Below are positions 2,511 through 62,900 of a DNA stretch of 64,000 nucleotides, piece by piece. Source of the DNA: Phoronis australis (Eukaryota > Animalia > Phoronida); contig NMRA01000299.1 in the NCBI GenBank assembly GCA_002633005.1, positions 310,001 to 374,000 of the forward strand, written 5' to 3'. The notes below the pieces were generated by a model that ran no database searches, was not told the DNA's origin, and saw only the letters and a program-made list of their open reading frames with translations. Position numbers and translations under genes: made by a program. Position 1 is the stretch's first letter; every line of letters begins with the position of its first letter.

Positions 2511-4192
2511 ATTAATTAACAGGCTGTCAAACAGGACTAAGTGAGAACATCAAAGATGCAGATTCATGCCTTTTACCAGGCATCGTATTAATACCAAGTT
2601 CAAACATTTATGTTATGCTCAAGGATTTGTTGCAACTCAGCAAGGACTAGGGTATCGATAGCGTGTTGATAACAACGGCGAATCGTTGGGTATGACGGAC
2701 CAAGCTACAGAGTGTGTGGTCATCAGTGTAGTTTGATTCTGATTGTCAATTTGTGACAAATTTTAATGTATAAAACAGTAATTATAAAAGGTTTTATTTA
2801 CAAGCATTGAAGAAAAATCGCTGTTGTTATCAATACGTGACAAGCAAAGCTCCAATATACATATTTTGCCTTCATATCAAGCCTTATTTAACAGCCTATT
2901 GATAAACATTTAAAAGCAATTACCGTGATAACAAATAGTATTAAATTTTTAAAGAGGAAGAAAGAAACTGACAGTATGCCACACTGTGTAATATGAAAAG
3001 ACAGTAAGTATAAAAACTGTACATTTTAGTTTCTGAAAAGGCTTGATATGTTTAAGTCAGTGCCTTCACATTTCAAACCAGTAACTATTTGGTATAAAAC
3101 CAAACAGTTAATAAGCAAGAAGTACAAAATTCTTGTTTCACTCCATATTGCACCATCAGTAAACCAAAAATAATTAAGACAATCATTATGACGGCCGAGT
3201 GCAAGCAGGATTCACCATGAGAATATCAGGAATAATTTGTCACTGTGCAATGGGTCATTACCTATCATGATAGAGAAACAAAATTTTGTCCGATTAATTT
3301 AAATTTATTTTGGCGTGCATTGTATACAGCAAGGCTGATTAAAAACAAGCTCACACAACCCTTTTATAACACTTACGACATTTTTGATGACCGGAGGCTT
3401 TCAACACGTAAATCTGTATAGCAGGGTAACCATGTGAACTACTTATGTCCTGTTTTATGCAAACCTACCATGCAGATGACTCAATCATCCTGAAAAAATA
3501 TGTAAAACATTTTAAAACACAATCCTTGCATAGGTGGATTTAGGAGGGCCCAGGGGACCCGCCCCCACCCCCCTCCTTGGCTGCCACAAGCAAAATGAAA
3601 CAGCAATAGCATGAAGCGTGAGGAAATATTAAGTTCAGCAACTAGGACTGGCAGCGGATGAGGGGGGGCTCAGACCCCAGGCCGTGGCGGCATCATGTTT
3701 CATTTTTTTAGTCCACCGACAAGTTTTCGGAACAGGAGGTCCACATCCCCAGCCCCGGCAACTTTCGGGTATACAATAGCGTAGCACTTTACCCAATGCC
3801 CCAAGGCAATATCTTGGCCCACCACTTATGGTATCCTAGATCCGCCACTGCCTTGTGTATGATAATATGAAAAAATAGCTTGTAGAGCCTCAGTGAACAA
3901 GTCTTCAGGAAATAACCATATCTTAAGTCATAAGTAGAGAAATTAGTGGGAAAAATGACCTAGGTCAGTGGCGGATCTAGGATATTACAAGGGGGGGGCA
4001 ACATTTTGTCTGTAAACATTTGCGCAAAGCACGATTGTAGATGCCCATAGCAACGAATGGGGGGAGGTCGGGAAGGGGGCAGGAAAATTTTTCTGTTTTT
4101 CCTCTAAAAATCAAGCGTTTTCCTTGATTCCTGAAGTATTATCCAAGAAAAAAAACACGAAGAACGTGTCAAACTTGAAAAACTGCAATAAC

Positions 4193-4262
4193 CACAGACT
4201 CAACGCCACGACCTGGTGGAGGGAGCGCGCGTGCTTTACCACTGCACCACCACGATTCCACT
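4193..4262 (-). repeat. Possible degenerate tRNA-derived SINE head
   Basis: Minus strand has an A-box-like TGGTGCAGTGG and a degenerate B-box-like GCGTTGAGTC. No full cloverleaf. Confidence 0.3.
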
Positions 4263-4373
4263 CGTAATATGATACTAATAGACCTACTTGTTTGTGGTCC
4301 ACAGCGTTTGCGCGTGAAACCTACTTCTTTTTGTAATGCTTATTATACTTTTTATACTTTATGCAATCAGTTC

Positions 4374-4903
4374 ACACTTGCTCACAACGCTGATAATGTA
4401 ACGTCTGAGGTTACTAGTACCTTCCAACACGGAAAGAAGCAAACTAGGAGTTGTAATAACTGCTCAACAGCAAAGGAAAAAACACAGATAGACCGGGAGT
4501 TGACCGTCTACCTCCCAACGCTAAGGAAAGAAATAACTATGCAGGAGTTGTGGCACAGCTTGTGGACGTCGTTGGACATCGAGGACTTTAGTAATGCCCA
4601 CACTGTAATAGTCTCAGTGGCCAGCTCACATGGTCATTAGTAAAACCGCCAAAATACCTTTGTATTCATATCTTACGAACTGCGACTAATGGTGAAAAAA
4701 TCAACACAAAGATTTCTTCGTATGACCTCTCCGGCTACAAAATAAAAGCAGTCATTGAACACCATGGAAGAAACACGACGGGTGGTCATTGCACATGCTG
4801 TGTTAAATCGTCAGCATGGGAATGGATAAATTTTGACGACTCTACAGTCACAAGTACATCCAAGCCTCCCCTGGATGCCTACATTGCAATATATGAATTA
4901 TAA
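4374..4903 (+). pseudogene. Ubiquitin-specific protease (peptidase C19) C-terminal half, one frameshift
   Basis: Frame 1: STFQHGKKQTRSCNNC...RELTVYLP...DIEDF. After a frameshift at ~4590-4595: CPHCN...KPPKYLCIHILR...YKIKAVIEHHGRNTTGGHCTCCVK...WINFDDSTV...AYIAIYEL* (two CxxC motifs plus His box/FDD). Cys box absent, consistent with 5' truncation. Confidence 0.85.
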
Positions 4904-5203
4904 ACCATCAAAGGAAATCAACATAAAAAATATGGCGCAATTTCAACATCAACGTCGCATATCACATCTGCCACAGCCAAGTCAAGTTATTTTTGAAATT
5001 CATCCTGGTACGGGAATTGGGGATAGTTAGGCCTATAACAGATCTTTAACCCAGCCGCAGAGCGTCTAAAGCCGCGCACCGTACCAGTGACTGCTGGCAA
5101 CTCATCGGAGACTCAACTTTAACATCCTTCGCCGCAGAGATAACAACTCTTGGGCTGTCTCCGGTGAGTCCATTCTTTGTTAAATGATGTTTAGGTAAAT
5201 AAA
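4374..5203 (+). mobile_element. 5'-truncated retroposed copy of a HERO-like non-LTR element 3' end carrying a USP domain
   Basis: Perfect 14-bp direct repeat TATGCAATCAGTTC at 4360-4373 and 5204-5217. Segment ~4925-5200 is homologous to the 3' UTR at ~61570-61826 of the RLE retrotransposon. Confidence 0.85.
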
Positions 5204-5586
5204 TATGCAATCAGTTCGTAACAGATTTGTTGTATTTAAAATAGTCTTCAATTGCCCAAAAGAACAAGTCCGTTTTTTTTTGTGTTGGCATTAATGACGC
5301 GACTGCTTTGGAAATCGTCTTAAGTTAAGGTTTGACAAAAAGAGAATTATGAGTTTCTGAGTGATTCCTTCAGGCTTCGATTAAAATTCACATCTTAACA
5401 GCAGCTTCTGTTTTTTCATCGTCACTCAGATTCCATTTTCTTTAAAAAATGAAGTAATTTTCGTCATTGCACTGTGAAGCAGACGACGGAAACGGAGTCG
5501 TAGTGCGCAGCGCCACTGCTGGTTGCTTGGGATATTGCGGGAGAGCCTGTACATAGCCATAGTTCCGTTACAATTGCGCCGTGTTT

Positions 5587-17299: not shown

Positions 17300-18662
17300 T
17301 TGTTTTTTAATCGCCTTCTCCAAATCTATTAATGCTCTCTTCCTTGTTGACCCGTCTTATGACCTTAAACTTAATGATGAAACCATTCCTAGAAAACAGT
17401 CGCACAGACATCTGGGTATACTGTTAGATGAAAAACTCCCATTCACCCCTCGGGAGCTCGTACAAAAAAAAAAACTCAGGAACTAATTAACCCACTTAAG
17501 CTTGTCTCTCGTCATCTGAATTCTACCCATTTAGAAGTTTTGTTCAAATCCTTTATACTTCCACACATTGATTATTGTGATATTGTATATCAGTCTGCCA
17601 ATACGGGTGCACTCCAACATTTGGAGAAGTTACAATATCAAGCTGCCTTACTCATAACCGGAGCATACACGGGATCCAATAGTGTTAAAGTTTTGTTCAA
17701 GTGGCCTAAACTGTCTACTCGACGCAATCTTCACATGACCACATTTACTTTCAAGGTAATAAACAATGTCAGCAATGTTTCTGTCAAAAAAAATATTTGA
17801 TCTATACACTAGACAAGGCCGTCGTAATGATTTGAGATCCTCCACCCCATATGCAATTCCTCCGTCGTTCAGTCAGGCATTCAGAAGGTCTACAGTCATG
17901 ATGTGCATCAACAACTGGAATTCTCTTCCAGTCTCTGTTAAGGAAAGCAACTCTTTTACGAGTATGAAAAATAATTTTAGAACCGTTTTTCATAATTTTG
18001 AGAACTCAACACCCTTGACTCAATTCTCACTTCCCCGCGATAACGAAATAGCATTGTACAGATCAAGATGCTGCCTTCTCCTCAACTCCGACAAGTTCAG
18101 GCACAACTTTAGTAATGTCTCTCCAAACTGTTAATGTGGTGACCATTACTCTTATCCTCATATTTTCTTCAAATGTCAGCTCATCGAATACCTGAGAGAC
18201 TCACTCTTTCGTGCACTCAATGAAAACCAATCAATTGCTAACGCTCACAATTAAAGCTGTAATAATTTCCCTACTACCAGTCAATTGTAAACGCTCTCAA
18301 TTCTTGTAATAATATCCCTACTAGAGTTACATTATTATTGAATGGTAGTCCTAACCTTGACCTCGTTCTCAACAAATTCCTCCTAAGCAACGTTAGTAAA
18401 TTTTTATGTACCGTTTATCTATATTGTTGCATCTGATTTCCATACATAAATCTGTACAATTTATTTTTGTTTTTATATATTTGTAATAGCATATCTAAGT
18501 ATTGGAATACTTATATTAGATACTACTTAATTGTATATACCTCTATGTATATTAGTTTCATTTATGACTCGTTTACAACCGAGATATAATGCTTCGCGGT
18601 TTCTGGGTTTGTTATTATTTCTTTGTATGTTCTGTGTATTCTTCAATAAATACATATCACTT
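17300..18662 (+). mobile_element. CR1/L2-group LINE, 5'-truncated (RT C-terminus plus 3' UTR)
   Basis: HRHLGILLDEKL, FKSFILPHIDYCDIVY, LEKLQYQAALLITGA, INNWNSLP motifs with frameshifts. AATAAA near the end. Second copy at 29389-29907. Confidence 0.85.
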
Positions 18663-50900: not shown

Positions 50901-53900
50901 GTGATTATTCACATTTGTACCAAACTTTTGTCCATGAATTACAAAAGCGTGTCTGAGGGATTTTTTCTTAAGCCCTTTAAAGCACGAGAGTTTGGTTGTC
51001 AAAAAAACATCACCTCCATTTTTTCAAGAAATGTTAAGGTCGTCATTTTTCAAAACAATTCTTGAAATGAAATCCCAGACTCTTTTTTATAGCTCATAGA
51101 ATAATAAAAAAAGCAGAATTTGCATGTTTTGCTCAAAAAGGTTCTTGTTTGTGAAAGGTATGGTGATCTCTGAAATATCAAGAATTTTAGAAAAAACGCT
51201 GTCATGTGGAACATGTGGGTATCAGCTTCAAGGATTTTGAAAATTTTTAGTATTGTAAGAATTGTGTTATTACTCAAGAGTTATTTAAGAAATTTCACAC
51301 TTGGTAACAAAGGGAGCCTATTACGTTGACAAAAGGATACTTAACCCGATTGGGTAATTTCACTCACAGCTGGTTCTGTCACGTGCTATAATTGTACAGT
51401 TATGACATCCCTCGAGAGGTTAAAGCACTGCTCACGTAAGACATCCTCGCTGAGTCTCAGAGCAAATAACATGGTTTGGGGTGTGTTTTTTTTTTCCTTA
51501 GAAATAGGTTAACTCTCCTTATCTGAGTTTTTGAACTTGTTGCTAACCACTGCGCCTTGACAATAGTTACAGACGAGTTACGTTTAACAAATATGAGTGA
51601 TCCATCTTAGTTATATTGTTTTGATGATCTAAAACACGGTTTAGGTACCCTTTGAGAAAATTAATGTGTTGCACTTAATAAGAACAAGTTTTTGGTTGTC
51701 ATGGTTATTCCAGCTTGATAATTGTTTATAATTAGTCATTAAAAACCATAGTTTGTCCAATAAATGCAAAAGTATAGTTCTTTTATCATCTTAGAATTTG
51801 CTGCATTTTTTCGACTTTCAGATTTATCACAGATCAGCAAAGGTTTCAACAGACGTTCCTATTGAATCATTGAAAGAACAGGTGACCACTGCTGTAGAGA
51901 ATGAGGCAAGTTCAACTGCTTTCAAAATAGGGAAAACCCTTTCTAGTCAACATTATGCTTAGTTGCTGTTAGGTGTTTTAGGTATTACCGCTAGGGGGCA
52001 GTTTTGAGTTTTATCAAGGAGTTCTAGTTGGTCACCGATGGTGAGCAGATGTGTGTCATGATTTATCTGAACACTGAGGCTGGACTTTATGTTTTCTTCA
52101 TACTTTCTAAATACTGAACGTTATTTGTTTATGTGGTGACCCTTTGCTACGGCATGGACAGCAGCGCATTTTGTATGGAACTTGACTGTATTATTTTGGT
52201 GGACTGGTAGAGTTAGCGGAACGCCTTGCCTTGGTGATGAAGACTGAAGATGCCGCGAGTTTCAATTTTTCTACTGTTGGTGCTGACGTTCTACCCTGTC
52301 TTCGTCCCAAGTTTCGCGTAACTTGTTATCATGTTTGTAAATATGTAAATAGATATTGATTTAGATCAGGATAACTGAAAAGTCTTTCTTTTTGTTTATA
52401 TTACTGTAACAGTTGCGAAGAAGAGACATTTATATTCTTTTCTTGTAATGCTTGATGTTGTGAATGGATATTACATTTAAAGCCAATTCCCACATTCCTG
52501 ATCCAATGCTCCTCATATGCTGAAGTAGAAAAACCTGCAGTTGATATGAGTGAGTTAGTTTTATATGCTGACGCATTACGGAGAGGATCCAGGCAAGTAA
52601 ATGATTTATTGTGCATCACTCAGGTTTTCAAAATTTTTGATGTCTGCATTGCGAATTACCATGCAATAATAAAACTTGATGGGGACCAGAATGATAGATG
52701 GCTAATTAATTGAAATTAGAAGTTAGTGATTAGCCAAGAGCAGTGTTTAACTGTGGAGCAAGTGTACTTTTAATGCTCGAATTTGTGGGTAAGTGCTGCA
52801 GAATCGGGGGGGGGGGACACCATAGTACTTGGGAAGTGGTCATTGTGTGGTCACAGTAAAATGTGGTCAAAGGTTAGAGGCCATGTCACAACTTTGTTGC
52901 GGCTTGCATAGCAGTAAAAAATCTGAACTTGTTTATAAGTTCTAGTCAAACTTTTTATGAATTTATAATGAGATCAAATAAACAGTTCCGAAGACTGGTT
53001 TTATGGTCAAGTTGATTGTAAGTGGCTAGGTAACACTCTGTGAAAAGATAGTCAGTATGGTGTTTGTTTATCACAGATTCACAGCCAGGCAAGTGAGTAT
53101 GAAGTGTCAGAGGATGAGTACTACCAGCTGCAGCTGCAACAGTGGTCCAAGTTCTACTCATGCTGTGTTCAGTATCAAGAGGTTGGTGGTCTAATGTTGT
53201 AGTACCGGTGTTTGTGTACGCCAACATCTATATGAATTGGCTGGTTATAGATCAGGGAAATGTGAGTCAAAAGTTAAGATGTTGCATTGGTGGCACAGGT
53301 TTCCCCCACCTGCCTTGGAAGAAAATGGACTTATAAATGAAAAAAGGTCCATTGTTACATTTTCTGAAAAAGCAATTCGCGTAACTTAAGCATATTTTCT
53401 GGACTGTTCAGAGAACGTAAGAAAAATTTACTAACAAGATTTAATTCGTGCTAAGTTGAACTACGAGAATTGTGAGATCTTTTCCTACAAATGCAGCTGT
53501 CAAATTTCAAACTCCATGTAGAATGCGAGAACTCACATCAGGTATACTTTCAAATGAAAACATTGGTGTGTTGAAAAGAGTCATCTTTCACTGTAGTGGG
53601 AAACTCAAATTCAAAAAACAGTGCTAGTGAATAAACGAACTGCCTCGTAGATATGCATTAAGGTAGTCATGTGGGACCTTTAGCCCACGAACTTCTCCAT
53701 GTTGATGACCTACTTTATACTCTGGACGACCTTTTTCTATAAGTATATACTAGATCATCATGTTTCAGGTTGGTTCCAAACCTTTAGGTCTGTTCTCAGA
53801 TGTTGCTACTGGGATGGTGTGTGTTGTGAAGAAGACAACTTTGTCCTACATCCGACCATGCGACATACTGGAGTTTTTCCAGTTGTCTCCCCAGTATCAG

Positions 53901-56900: not shown

Positions 56901-59900
56901 GAAACCTATATGCTAATCAAATACCCTACTTTACTAAGCAATAGGGCCATCTAATAAGAAAAAATAGGTCACAGGTCATTGAGTGCAAACTAAAATTTTG
57001 AACTTGACACTTCAAATTTTCATACCTGTTCAGTAAACGCGATTGAGTTTGAATTATAAAGTCCATGTCATTTGGTGCAAACATGGGGTCGTTATGTGCC
57101 TTTTCTCTTCTGAAATTTTGACCAATTCATTCATCTTGTATAATTCTAAAGTGCTTAAAGTAAGACATCTCTAATTCTTACCACTAACCACATTTTTCAT
57201 CGAGTTTACATTCCTTCCCTAATCAGGGCTCGTAATGCACTGGCAAGGGTCAATTAGTGTAAAGGTCATCAAATTATCAACTTGTATTTTCTCCTATAGT
57301 TTATAGAATTCTTTTTCATATTGGTGAACGGGTTCTTGTCAATGACTTCCCATAACAATTCCAGTAATACGCACGCGCAGAGTCCATGATTGTCACACCG
57401 TGACAATAATCTTTCTAGTTAAATTTAGTGAGTGAATTTATATGGAAATAACAGAGGACGACTTTCAGGCTGATGGAACAGACAATTTCATTTTGTTCTG
57501 TTTTGCTTTGTTTCTCTGAAGTTCCTTGACAGATTTTTACGAAATATGGCATGTTCCCATTTTTGGATGGATTGTATATTTTTGCGCCATCTAGTGGCCA
57601 TTTTTGTAATACAAATAAATAACTCCAAAAGCACACCATTTGTGATGCATTGGTGGGCGCATTTCAACGCTCCGCATTGCTCTTGTATCATGAATAGATA
57701 GTTTCTGATGAAGGCTAATGTCTGTGATGATAGGCATGAAGTGTGCACTTCTTGGCCACGTGGTTTTAACTCGGGTCAAGTTTTTTATTAGTCTTCGATT
57801 CGCAGTTTTCATGTGTAGGCCTACAAAGAAATTTAAGTTCCTGTTGAGGGAGAAGATGTGGAATCTATTGACAAGTACACTGTGTCTGTTCTGAAAGGCC
57901 AGGCCATAGTGGTACACGTTCCTCGCAAGATCAGCAAAACTTTTCTGTTCTTTATGAAGATCGATGGAAGTTTGAAGTGTATAGTCACGACTAAATACAG
58001 ACATGACGAAGCTAGTGGTCTAGAAATTCCGCACAAAATGATTTTATCAGGACTGCCGGATCTTATTCATAAATTGAGGATGTTACTGTTGAATTTTTGC
58101 ACATCTGGTCTGTATCATCTGCTAGATATTTTAGAAAAAATATTTATTGCTAAGTTACGAACAGTTGTTGAATGTTAGCCTGAAAAAACATGCTCCAGTC
58201 TGTGCCAAGAATTTTTAAATTCTAGGTTGTCATTCTTGACAAGTAAAATTTTATGGCAGACAAATTCTCATTGTAAAAATTTAATGAAATCTTGAATGTA
58301 ATAGATATGTTTTTGCAAATAGATATTGTTCTTTCTGCTATTTTTCAAAATAAGATGATACTTTTTGTGATAACTTCATTTATGTTTACTCTGGTGAACA
58401 CTTGTACTTCTGCTTGATAATAACATTGTCTGGTGTGCTACCATTTTGTCTTCATTGTTTCAGACCGTTCTCTGTGGTCTCAGGTCATCACACTTGTTCA
58501 CTGTACTAAGTTGGTGAAGAGGCTGCTAACAGCAGACCTTGAGTATGAGTTTGAACACAGCTTGTTTCATGGTGAGCCAGTCAATGTTGCTCAGCAAGTT
58601 GTTGATGCAATCCTGAGGGATCAAGGGTACGTAAGTAGGGTGTAAGCACTTCACAGCCACACTGATTTTTGTGTCATTATTGTGAATTCATCTTGTGCTT
58701 GTTTAATTTTGTTGTCTGCTTACTTTGCAGTTGTTTTGTCTGATTCATTGAAGTTGTTAAATCTTGCCCAAATGTATATTTTGTACATGTCAGTTTTCCT
58801 GTCTTGGTGAGCTATGGGTCCCGATGCTCTGGGGAGTGTCAGTTCATGATAGGGTCCTTTCAGCTTTATCCCATCTCATTCAAAAAGAAAAGTTTCAGAG
58901 GTACAAATTGAATCAGCTGCTGGTCCTGCTACATAACTGTAGCTAAATTGACACTGGCTCGTTTTAATGGGTCTATACCATATGAGTGTTCTTCACAACA
59001 GAAAATTCAAACTCAACGGGAATTACAGTTATGTGTTCAAAAGGCTATGTTCATACTGTGGTGAGTCTTGAAATAAGTACATTGAAATGGGACCATAAGT
59101 CCAAAATGGCATAACTAATCTTCCAAAACTTAAACTTGTTACATGCGTTTTCAGACTTGACAAAAGGGAGGCAAAATCGTCACAACAAAATTCAAACTTG
59201 ATGCAGTGATGAGTCAAAACAGGTTGTGGAGAACACTCACTGGGTATTCATATTACTTAGATGCTGTCTGGGTCTGTTTCTTCCAAACCTCTGCAGGGTA
59301 ACACATGACTGTGTGTTCTTAAGGAAAAACAACATACAGCAACTACTTTGCAGTCTAGTGCTCACTGAATATGTTTTGAGTGAGTTTATATGCACAAAGT
59401 CCCGAGGTCGCCGATTTTGGAAAGTCTGATTTATGAGAAAAATAGTCCCCATGACTGGAAAGCTCATAGAAACTGAAGAATATGTAAAAACTTGTGAAAT
59501 TTCATGGAATTTTTTTTAAAGAATTATCTTCCAAGTACTAGCACAAATTGATGCACTTAGTTCTGAGAAAAAAATTACTATTTAACTTGTGGGAAAATGA
59601 TGTGGAAAATCGAAATGATAGCATGTATTCTTTTCCATTTCCTTCATTAGAGAGCGCAATGTGCATGAGACTATGAATGAGCTGCAGACACTTGTTCGGA
59701 ACCTCACAGATATTGAAAAGGCTGTCACGGTGTTGTTGGAGCTAGCCGACCTTGCCCAAGGCAATCCGGAGGGTCTACAGACCAGTGACTTGAGTAAGCA
59801 TTTGCTCGTAGGTGACATGGTATTCAGAATTTAGTGCTAATGAATTCAGGCCCCTCTTAGATTAAGAGCAAAAAGAAGTCCATCAACATCCGGGTGTCTT

Positions 59901-62900
59901 TGAGCGTATGGTCAAACGTTATTACCTGAATAGATGCATTTCGGTAAACCAACACCATGCAATGTATTTGGACGAAAATAAAGCACTCTTATATCTGTAT
60001 AGCTGTGCCAAACAAGGGTTATGGCTCAGATGGGATGTAGTTATGTCACTTGATGTATTTTGGAGCAAGAGTCTCTATGCTTGGAATCCATCTCTCTTGG
60101 CATTTAGGTTAAATGCCATACACGATGTACTTCCAACACTAGCAAATTTACATTTATGAAAACAATCGCCTTCTGAACATTGCAACCTCTGCAGAACAGC
60201 TAAAGGCACACTTCACCACATCCTCAACAATTGCACAGTAGCATTAAATAATTGTCGCTACACTTGGCGACATGACCAAGTCCTAGCAATAATATTTGAT
60301 GCTATCAATGAAGTAGTTCAAAACCGTCCGAAGCCTGTAACTGAATAGCAATCAGATTTAAGTCAAAGAATGGTTTTTACTTCAGCAATAACAAAACAGA
60401 GCCGAACTTCAGAGAACAAGCCCACTTCCAGGCCAAGATCAACGATTGGAAACTAATTAAAGATTGTACAGAAACGCCTCTTATATTCCCATCTGAAATA
60501 ACAGATTCGGCATTAAGACCTGACATTGTGCTATGGTCAATTCAGGCAAAAAGAGCAGTTTTAATAGAACTTGCAATACCAGCAGAAGACAATATGGAAT
60601 CAGTACACCTGAGGAAAAGAATGAAATACACAAATCTCGTCGAAGAATGTGAAAATGCAGGATGGCAAACAGTCCTGTTCCCTGTTGAAGTNAAATAAAG
60701 CACTCTTATATCGGTATAGCTGTGCCAAACAAGGGTTATGGCTCAGATGGGATGTAGTTATGTCACTTGATGTATCTTGGAGCAAGAGTCTCTATGCATG
60801 GAATCCATCTCTCTTGGCATTTAGGTTAAATGCCATACACGATGTACTTCCAACACTAGCAAATTTACATTTATGAAAACAATCGCCTTCTGAACATTGC
60901 AACCTCTGCAGAACAGCTAAAGGCACACTTCATCACATCCTCAACAATTGCACAGTAGCATTAAATAATTGTCGCTACACTTGGCGACATGACCAAGTCC
61001 TAGCAATAATATTTGATGCTATCAATGAAGTAGTTCAAAACCCTCCGAAGCCTGTAACTGAATAGCAATCAGATTTAAGTCAAAGAATGGTTTTTACTTC
61101 AGCAATAACAAAACAGAGCCGAACTTCAGAGAACAAGCCCACTTCCAGGCCAAGATCAACGATTGGAAACTAATTAAAGATTGTACAGAAACGCCTCTTA
61201 TATTCCCATCTGAAATAACAGATTCGGCATTAAGACCTGACATTGTGCTATGGTCAATTCAGGCAAAAAGAGCAGTTTTAATAGAACTTGCAATACCAGC
61301 AGAAGACAATATGGAATCAGTACACCTGAGGAAAAGAATGAAATACACAAATCTCGTCGAAGAATGTGAAAATGCAGGATGGCAAACAGTCCTGTTCCCT
61401 GTTGAAGTCGGCAGTAGAGGCTTCATCTACAAATCATTGAAGAAGCTAATGAATTTCCTCGAGGTTCCCAAAGAAATCAAAAAACAAACATACCAAACGG
61501 CCAAACTATTCACAATCATGACTCAACAGAGGACCCTATACAATCAGCTACTTCGTCATCCCCGATATTAAAAAATAGGGCGCACTTTCAACATAGATGT
61601 CGCACATCACATCTGAGTCAAACAAGTCAAGATATTTTTGAAATTCATCCTTGTACGGGAATTGGGGATAGTTAGGCCTATAAAAGATCTTAAACCCAGC
61701 GGCAGAGCGTCTAAAGTTGCTGGCAACTCATCGGAGAAACAACTTTAACATCCTTCGCCGCAGAGATAATAACTCTTGGGCTGTCTCTGGTTAGTCCATT
61801 CATTCTTGAAAGATGTTTAGGTAAAAAATTACGGTAATATAAACAAAAAGAAGCACTTTTCAGTAATTCTGATGTAAATTAATCTCTATTTACATATTTA
61901 CAAACATGATAACAAGTTACGTGAAAGTTGGGAAGAAGACAGGGTCGAACGTCCAAAACTTGAAACTTGCGGCATCTTCAGTCTTCATCACCGAGGCGTC
62001 TTCACATGTTTCATTGACTCCATAAGTCCACCAAAATAATACAGTCAAGTTCCATACACTGACAAGACGCTGCTGTCCGCAACGTAGCAAAGGCTCGCAA
62101 CATAAACAAATAACATTCATTATTTAGAAAGTATGAAGAAAACAAAGTCCTGCCTCAGTGTTCAGATAAATCATGACACGTCTGCTCACCATCGGCGACC
62201 AACTAGAACTCCTCGATAAAACTAAAAACTGCCCCCTAGCGGGAATACCTAACATACCTAACAATTGTACATTTGTTTACGGTTATGATACATCACGTAC
62301 AGCACTCAAAGGTTGTTCTTGCATTATGTCAACATCACATGCCAATGGAAGTTGGTGTCCTTGTTTTCATTTTCTACATCACTGCCTCACTTAGAAAATG
62401 TTAAAGCCGTGACTGACCAGAACATTCTTGGTTTGTCAATCCACTCTGCGTTTTATTGAGCTGAAGGTAATAGACACTTCTGACAAACCCAGTGAAGCCA
62501 CCCCCACCTTCATTGCGAAGTGCCACAAGTGCAAAGCAAATACTGTGGAAGTCCGGGATAGGTCAAACAGACTGCTTTCGACATGTTCACAATGCTATTT
62601 TACTGAAACTGTAATGGGCTTGGGTCAGACAGTCTCAAAGGGCACTGGATAAAAATGTGTTGTTTTACACACGGGTACATCCACGATTTCAAGTCTTTGA
62701 AACCATTCAGTAAGAAAATCTTGAGGTTAAAGCTTATTAAATGAATCGCACAAATAAATCTTTAAAATTTTGTGTTGCTTTTTTACATTTTTTTTTCACA
62801 AAAATACTTCAATCAATGAAAGGTGTGAAATTAATTGCATTTTTGATGGGAACTTGTAAAGCCATTTCAGGCTCGTGCAAATCACTACCGTTTAGTCATT

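Follow-up and report, generated by a model that had tools for sequence, protein, structure and literature searches.

DNA transposons, and a few LINEs of nematodes, are known to carry deubiquitinases and SUMO proteases. Helentrons (HLE2) carry deubiquitinases of the UCH, OTU, or VTD type, including the same Pfam family, UCH, that is found here, according to the available portions of two papers (PMC11417382, PMC9741609). HLE2 is described as inserting between T and T (PMC11417382), and the VTD enzymes have been suggested, in what is itself a proposal in the accessible text, to prevent proteasomal degradation of transposition proteins (PMC9741609). NeSL and Utopia-1_TSP are RLE-type LINEs with a protease of a ubiquitin-like system, as described in the available part of PMC4640811. 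Members of the HERO clade have a CCHC motif followed by the RLE, and show dispersed insertion and 5' truncation, according to the available portions of PMC4640811, PMC9004415, and PMC5678591. Features of these systems recur at the locus described here: a transposon-borne UCH domain as in Helentrons, what is probably an RLE-type LINE with a protease of the ubiquitin system as in NeSL and Utopia-1_TSP, and a CCHC knuckle ahead of an RLE, with dispersed and 5'-truncated insertions, as in HERO.

The window (the whole 64-kb stretch of DNA that was analysed) contains an insert at positions 4374-5203 with a USP/C19 coding part and a 3' tail, the latter shared with a HERO-like RLE piece elsewhere in the window (termed the RLE copy herein). 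The features of the insert and its target are as follows.

4100..5500 (flanks 4100-4359 and 5218-5500; ends unmapped), no strand assigned: high-copy host repeat, the recipient of the insertion, recognised from X2 depth
4360..4373, plus strand: left copy of the target-site duplication (TSD), from the 14-mer repeat and empty-site joints skipping 844 bases
4374..4592, plus strand: predicted USP coding part 1, 5'-truncated, fingers; over this part, the profile of alignment A1 matches USP15 and USP2, and longer copies extend upstream
4593..4594, plus strand: 2-nt frameshifting insertion of the window copy, missing from most other copies
4595..4903, plus strand: predicted USP coding part 2, with the second CxxC, the His box, WINFDD, and the stop, from Pfam UCH and the alignment with USP14, USP2, and USP15
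4904..4923, plus strand: 20-nt spacer from the stop to the shared tail; an X2 contig and two X7 reads have similar letters ahead of their tails
4924..5203, plus strand: 3' tail of the element, terminating in TAAATAAA at the duplication, from its match to the tail of the RLE copy
5204..5217, plus strand: right copy of the TSD, from the 14-mer repeat

Two copies of the 14-mer TATGCAATCAGTTC, and no more, are present in the window (4360-4373 and 5204-5217), and 830 bp (4374-5203) separate them. Direct 14-mer repeats spaced 700 to 1000 bp apart were seen in just three further repeat regions of the 64 kb (dispersed repeat, tandem duplicate). Nine public runs were listed for the insert; the stretch was present in six of them, from three studies, and four were compared. 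None of the listed runs containing the insert is registered as RNA. Run X2, whose DNA label is a guess, was treated as a transcriptome because one of its contigs matches a host exon exactly without introns, and its depth was therefore not used as a measure of copy number. With depth read in this way, X2 covered the flanks of the insert at hundreds to thousands, versus about 100 to 1000 within it. Ninety RNA reads of run X7, with 59 start places, and one X2 contig joined the flanks without the 844 bases (830 + 14). Because other copies of the target repeat skip exactly these 844 bases, the duplication around the 830-bp insert is a true TSD; on this point, the initial annotation, which had claimed an 830-bp insert bounded by a perfect 14-bp TSD, was right. 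Both the 14-bp TSD and the laddered 5' truncations are what one expects of target-primed reverse transcription, not of rolling-circle insertion. The insert, with its TSD, empty site, 5' truncation, constant 3' end, and several copies, some of them longer at the 5' end, is a product of target-primed reverse transcription, as had been claimed from the duplication and truncation.

In translation, the insert gives 73 codons in one frame, shifts by 2 nt at 4593-4594, and then continues for 102 codons up to the stop at 4901-4903. The cysteines of the fingers (CNNC, 4452-4463; CPHC, 4595-4606) correspond to a zinc ribbon and are aligned with those of USP15, and an MQELW motif (4539-4553) is common to the insert and to the database proteins P0006 and P0012. 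Further motifs are PKYLCIHILR (4649-4678), AVIEHHG (4748-4768), GGH (4781-4789), WINFDD (4823-4840), and AYIAIYEL (4877-4900). The catalytic His (4787-4789) and the position of the catalytic Asp, in WINFDD, both align with USP14 and USP15, and coding part 2 can be aligned to the His boxes of USP14, USP2, and USP15. Pfam UCH (PF00443) matched 4595-4900 with an E value of 1.8e-11 and 44.5 bits, above the curated cut-off of 23.9, so the proposed UCH assignment does have a profile match behind it. The frame upstream of the shift, searched alone against Pfam, gave no significant match; a profile covering both coding parts matched USP15 over fingers and palm (E value of 7.4e-14). The insert encodes the C-terminal half of a USP/C19 protease domain, and the reading of a C-terminal USP half with one frameshift was confirmed in all its named motifs and in the shift at 4593-4594. 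The position of the Cys box lies upstream of the 5' truncation of the window copy.

A phmmer search of the window USP against 1.84 billion representative proteins gave 132 matches, and over the best aligned of these top matches, the window USP is at most about 46% identical. Three unnamed singletons of ENA assemblies, P0006, P0008, and P0012, were the best single-domain matches; the contigs that encode them measure 932, 583, and 2053 nt, respectively. We built a quick maximum-likelihood tree with 130 rows, taken from 175 profile matches after removal of duplicates and of pieces under 100 residues; the window peptide was entered read through, with X at the shift. In this tree, in which long branches are abundant, the window USP forms a small divergent clade with P0006, P0008, and P0012 (SH-aLRT of 96), apart from viral and Helitron USPs and from the host-type USPs with which the initial annotation had proposed to compare it. 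P0012 is a complete relative, in which the Cys box, the His box, and the Asp can all be aligned to USP15, and it starts with Met and a short low-complexity leader; in the ESM Atlas, the clusters nearest to it are giant-virus USPs, which is a lead only. Two other kinds of USP-bearing proteins were met. P0003, P0004, P0007, P0009, P0015, P0018, and P0067 are database proteins with three or more tandem USP domains, and P0027 (cluster members P0135 and P0136), L017, L043, and L056 are Helitron/Helentron-like ORFs with a PIF1 helicase followed by a USP. P0027 is a protein of 1190 amino acids that combines PIF1, an AP-type endonuclease, and UCH in one ORF.

The runs contain further copies of the USP. 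Depth on the USP part was 107 to 463 in X2 (again not a copy number), about 25 in X5 (5' part), and 40 to 65 in X7. Among those listed, the USP contig pieces show divergences of 1.4, 2.2, 3.4, and 9.3% relative to the window copy, and they also differ from one another. At least two contigs extend upstream of 4374, one of 780 nt in X5 (440 further letters) and one of 316 nt in X2 (128 further letters). An X6 contig of 372 nt bridges the USP stop to the tail with 5 differences in 368 letters and carries the majority letters, not those of the window, and an X2 contig of 1169 nt contains the USP end and the tail with 85 intervening letters replaced. The 3' flanks behind the tail are heterogeneous, with an agreement of 0.37 to 0.57 among the matches listed. 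The 2 nt at 4593-4594 are absent at a depth of 182/182 in X2 (3 contigs) and 25/25 in X5 (1 contig) and from 30 of 42 X7 reads, so most other copies are open at 4593. The majority letters of the other copies are canonical USP residues: GGHY replaces the GGHC of the window (X2 depth, 373/373; X7 reads, 57/57), and Trp replaces the Arg of the window before the xLxL strand. The USP with its tail is therefore a multicopy, diverged family and not a single accident. The initial annotation had considered that only this one copy might join the USP to the tail; several diverged USP-tail copies, with longer 5' ends and other flanks, show otherwise.

The tail of the insert (4924-5205) matches 61569-61831 in 235 of 282 positions (83%; E value of 2e-87). 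The homology of about 275 bp claimed for the region after the stop was accordingly recovered, whereas its placement directly after the stop was not, because the tail begins 20 nt later. Rfam gave no match for the region 4300-5300. A long hairpin is predicted in the last 120 nt of the tail (z of −1.93 here and −0.30 in the other copy); it is only weakly better than shuffled sequences, with no compensatory pair in the two copies, and was given no weight as evidence. Over 5040-5200, sense-strand RNA reads reached 134 to 314, versus about 45 antisense, and contig depth was also raised over the last 160 nt, with a recurring 1-nt gap at 5109. This excess perhaps stems from short tail-only copies, such as a SINE-like derivative or copies in host 3' untranslated regions.

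The second occurrence of the tail is part of the RLE copy, which consists of three pieces.

59971..61502, plus strand: HERO-like RT-linker/CCHC/RLE piece, 5'-truncated and decayed, recognised from its 42 to 43% identity to the RT-RLE proteins P0001 and P0002
61503..61568, plus strand: internal 66-nt segment, from other upstream letters in two X2 contigs and an X2 depth estimated at 88 to 106
61569..61826, plus strand: second copy of the tail, with a private 19-nt deletion, from its match to the tail of the insert

In the window, the CCHC knuckle and the RLE (PD..E..K) are present in 59971-61502 only; motifs of this piece include RPDIVLWS at 61233, IELAIP at 61281, and PVEVGSRG at 61398. It is 32 to 48% identical to the fish-type RT-RLE proteins P0001 and P0002, and both it and these proteins we provisionally call HERO on the basis of their motifs; the window has no RT core. 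In the ESM Atlas, the RLE is nearest to eukaryotic clusters without a Pfam family, a lead only. The initial annotation had treated 61570-61826 as the 3' untranslated region of the RLE element. The shared tail stands, and an intact join from the RLE to this region does not: past 61502, within the final helix of the RLE, its frame no longer follows those of related proteins. In an X5 contig, the letters after 61502 read SQTALSCSYT and line up with the final RLE helix of P0002; these letters were found nowhere in the 64-kb window. Ahead of the tail (from 61569), an X2 contig and two X7 reads show USP-type letters. The RLE copy is thus an RLE, a stray internal segment, and a tail, in a single orientation, and the 66-nt segment is probably left over from the stretch that lay between RLE and USP. 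That the frame is open across this segment has an estimated chance of about one in three and is not significant alone. Because the copy is broken at 61502/61503, its missing USP is no evidence against a USP in the family. A nested insertion of the tail into a HERO copy was considered and rejected; the missing RLE end follows nowhere in the window.

Within the RLE copy, 59976-60691 and 60693-61408 form a tandem duplicate, 99.3% identical and separated by a single N; reads show no joint, and the pair is likely an assembly overlap left by scaffolding. A TSD was looked for around the RLE copy, and none was found. Another repeat (61829-62263, 84% identical to 51967-52409 in inverted orientation) starts 3 nt past the tail of this copy, whose TSD it may have removed. 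The RLE copy is located in the intron after host exon 59650-59793, which, like exon 58463-58630, is a spliced exon on the plus strand; a 3314-nt X2 contig matches the second of these exons exactly. The heptamer ATGCAAT opens the TSD of the USP copy (4360-4373) and also lies just upstream of the RLE copy's 5' junction (59956-59970). We do not claim a target specificity from it; other junction flanks are without it, and its recurrence may be chance. Elsewhere in the window, 17432-18134 has two stop-free plus-strand frames, which resemble a decayed APE-type LINE in its 3' region and the end of its RT.

Several observations bear on whether RLE and USP are located on one element. A single tail type was seen, in that the 19 letters missing from the RLE copy are present in 170 X7 reads. 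Other copies differ from the RLE copy by 4.9 to 7.3% in the CCHC/RLE part and by 7.8 to 10.1% in the tail. With the direction of the X7 library set by host exon 59650-59793 (minus-strand first mates only), antisense depth in X7 came to 44.8 for the RLE end, 48.8 for the USP, and 41.9 for the tail, with about 20 for the 66-nt segment, so the tail depth is not the sum of the RLE and USP depths. Sense depth was 2.0 on the RLE end and 6.5 on the USP, and the antisense excess of reads was 7.5:1 for the RLE and 22:1 for the USP. X2 depth was 14 to 21 on the CCHC/RLE part, 31 and then 107 on the RLE end, 88 to 106 on the segment (an estimate that assumes the start places of the next contigs), 107 to 156 at the USP start, and 293 to 1046 on the tail, climbing toward the 3' end in the manner of a truncation ladder. 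Points of 5' truncation were found at 59971, 61339, 61391-61393, and 4374. This pattern of depth and strand fits one element with a ladder of 5' truncations, whose copies lie antisense in host RNAs, and is circumstantial evidence for it; in X5, the agreement was weaker (10 on the RLE end versus 25 on the USP).

No join from RLE to USP was present among the reads, contigs, loci, and proteins listed. The 780-nt X5 contig, with its 440 letters upstream of 4373, is not among the six of six X5 records on the RLE copy; because of this, the RLE and the 66-nt segment would, if linked, lie more than 440 letters from the insert. None of the 132 USP matches matches the RLE, the CCHC, P0001, or P0002, and RT was found in 0 of the 34 USP-bearing proteins scanned. 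The USP piece gave no matches among proteins of 180 to 2000 amino acids (33 candidates; such a blank is weak evidence), and the RLE piece gave 2 matches among 1521 for proteins of 259 to 2000 amino acids, neither with UCH. Profile A4, run against proteins of 654 to 2000 amino acids, gave 2 of 7982 candidates, both host USP36-like, which is again weak evidence. We also collected 78 loci from viral contigs (with the USP piece, the RLE piece, alignment A2, two DNA motifs, and P0012 as queries), metagenome contigs (A2 and the His-box motif), and prokaryote genomes (motif); none of the 78 has an RLE or RT-RLE, and none is near the window USP clade. The full element RT-CCHC-RLE-USP postulated in the initial annotation is therefore supported indirectly, by the one tail type, the broken RLE copy, and the matching depth and strand, with no RLE-USP join seen.

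The insert is a 5'-truncated copy, made by target-primed reverse transcription, of a multicopy non-LTR family. Our main reading, to which we assign a probability of about 0.62, is that it represents the 3' end of a HERO-type RLE element with a downstream USP. This one-element reading requires two internal deletions in the RLE copy. A different arrangement, in which a non-autonomous USP cassette with a HERO-derived tail is moved in trans by a USP-less HERO (RLE, linker region, tail), we consider improbable, if the best of the rivals. P0001 and P0002, which have no UCH, end about 25 to 30 residues past the break point of the window copy, right after the RLE, and that known RT-RLE relatives stop there speaks for such a cassette, as do the protein searches, in which no protein combining RT and UCH was found, and the start of P0012, the nearest complete relative, with Met and a short leader. 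Depth alone also leaves room for other copies in which the 66-nt segment runs into the tail. The antisense depths argue the other way, given that two elements sharing a tail would lead one to expect the sum of 44.8 and 48.8 on it and not 41.9; the USP and the RLE end also run parallel in depth and strand, and selection would keep an enzyme less easily on an element that makes no RT.

Marginally less probable still is that the USP element belongs to another LINE clade (e.g., APE-type) and that the RLE copy is a template-switch chimera with a borrowed tail. The RLE copy does have three pieces that abut one another, the first junction shows no microhomology, no TSD was found when one was looked for, and the RT of the USP element was never seen. 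Set against this, the RLE part and the tail are similarly diverged from other copies, RLE and USP agree in depth and strand in both X2 and X7, and the ordinary 19-nt deletion of the RLE copy shows that deletions do happen in it. A LINE-borne USP would still stand if this were the case.

We regard as very improbable a one-off chimera or a processed host USP mRNA joined to a LINE tail: TSD and truncation also mark retrocopies, and the full-length element was not recovered, but the several diverged USP-tail copies with other flanks largely refute it, and the domain, at 46% identity or less to its best matches, groups with three unnamed orphans and not with host-type USPs. Equally improbable is a chance junction between a LINE tail and part of a Helentron-type DNA transposon, since, although UCH is reported in Helentrons in the available text of PMC11417382 and ORFs with PIF1 and USP were met here (P0027, L017, L043, L056), the window USP groups neither with P0027 nor with L043 and L056, and PIF1, looked for in the 64-kb window, gave no match.

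Returning to the HERO-type element with a downstream USP, its order would be RT-CCHC-RLE, linker, USP, and 280-nt tail. An RNA ending in USP, stop, and tail would be copied by target-primed reverse transcription with truncation, the HERO-type RT presumably binding the shared tail in cis, and the RLE copy of the window would have lost its USP through internal deletion. At about even odds, the USP would be either the C-terminal part of the RT-RLE protein or the product of a second ORF. The idea put forward for the Helentron VTD enzymes (PMC9741609) makes a protective job conceivable by analogy: the USP may remove ubiquitin from the element's own protein or ribonucleoprotein particle (RNP), delaying proteasomal loss. 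Its most probable role, as far as the analogy carries, would be to oppose K48-type ubiquitination of the RT-RLE protein or RNP and their loss through the proteasome; histones or repair factors at the nick, or chromatin at the insertion site, may be substrates instead. A bolder version appears doubtful to us, namely, that there is one polyprotein, RT-CCHC-RLE-linker-USP, with an active deubiquitinase that would be the first USP in a non-LTR retrotransposon, that P0006, P0008, and P0012 represent an old, wider lineage, and that the enzyme, traveling with the RNP, undoes ubiquitin on the RT or on target chromatin.

A USP kept in multiple copies would imply that host ubiquitination limits LINE proteins and that the element evolved a counter-measure. 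It would also offer a single small domain for testing whether ubiquitin-dependent turnover restricts target-primed retrotransposition. If the linkage is true, about 1 kb of additional coding sequence can be accommodated between the endonuclease and the tail of RLE elements, which are being developed as gene-insertion tools.

Full-text literature, searched outside Repbase, Repbase Reports, Dfam, subscription journals, and supplements, gave no report of a USP in a non-LTR retrotransposon. Transposon-borne USPs are known already; what is new is that a LINE is the host and that the USP sits at the 3' end, and an unremarked entry may exist. Compared with the HERO clade, for which no domain after the RLE is described in the available portions of PMC4640811, PMC9004415, and PMC5678591, a USP domain precedes the shared tail here. 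In NeSL and Utopia-1_TSP, as far as the available part of PMC4640811 goes, the protease is an Ulp1 (C48, SUMO-type) located N-terminal of the RT, whereas here it is a USP/C19 domain at the 3' end. Helentrons, in contrast, are rolling-circle DNA transposons, and the Helentron USPs found here belong to other clades. With the host proteins USP2, USP15, and USP14 (PDB matches), the window domain shares the zinc-ribbon fingers, the His box, and the Asp position, and P0012 shares the Cys box as well; unlike host USPs, the window domain is compact and fast-evolving, has no orthologue-level match, and is multicopy, intronless, and enclosed within a TSD.
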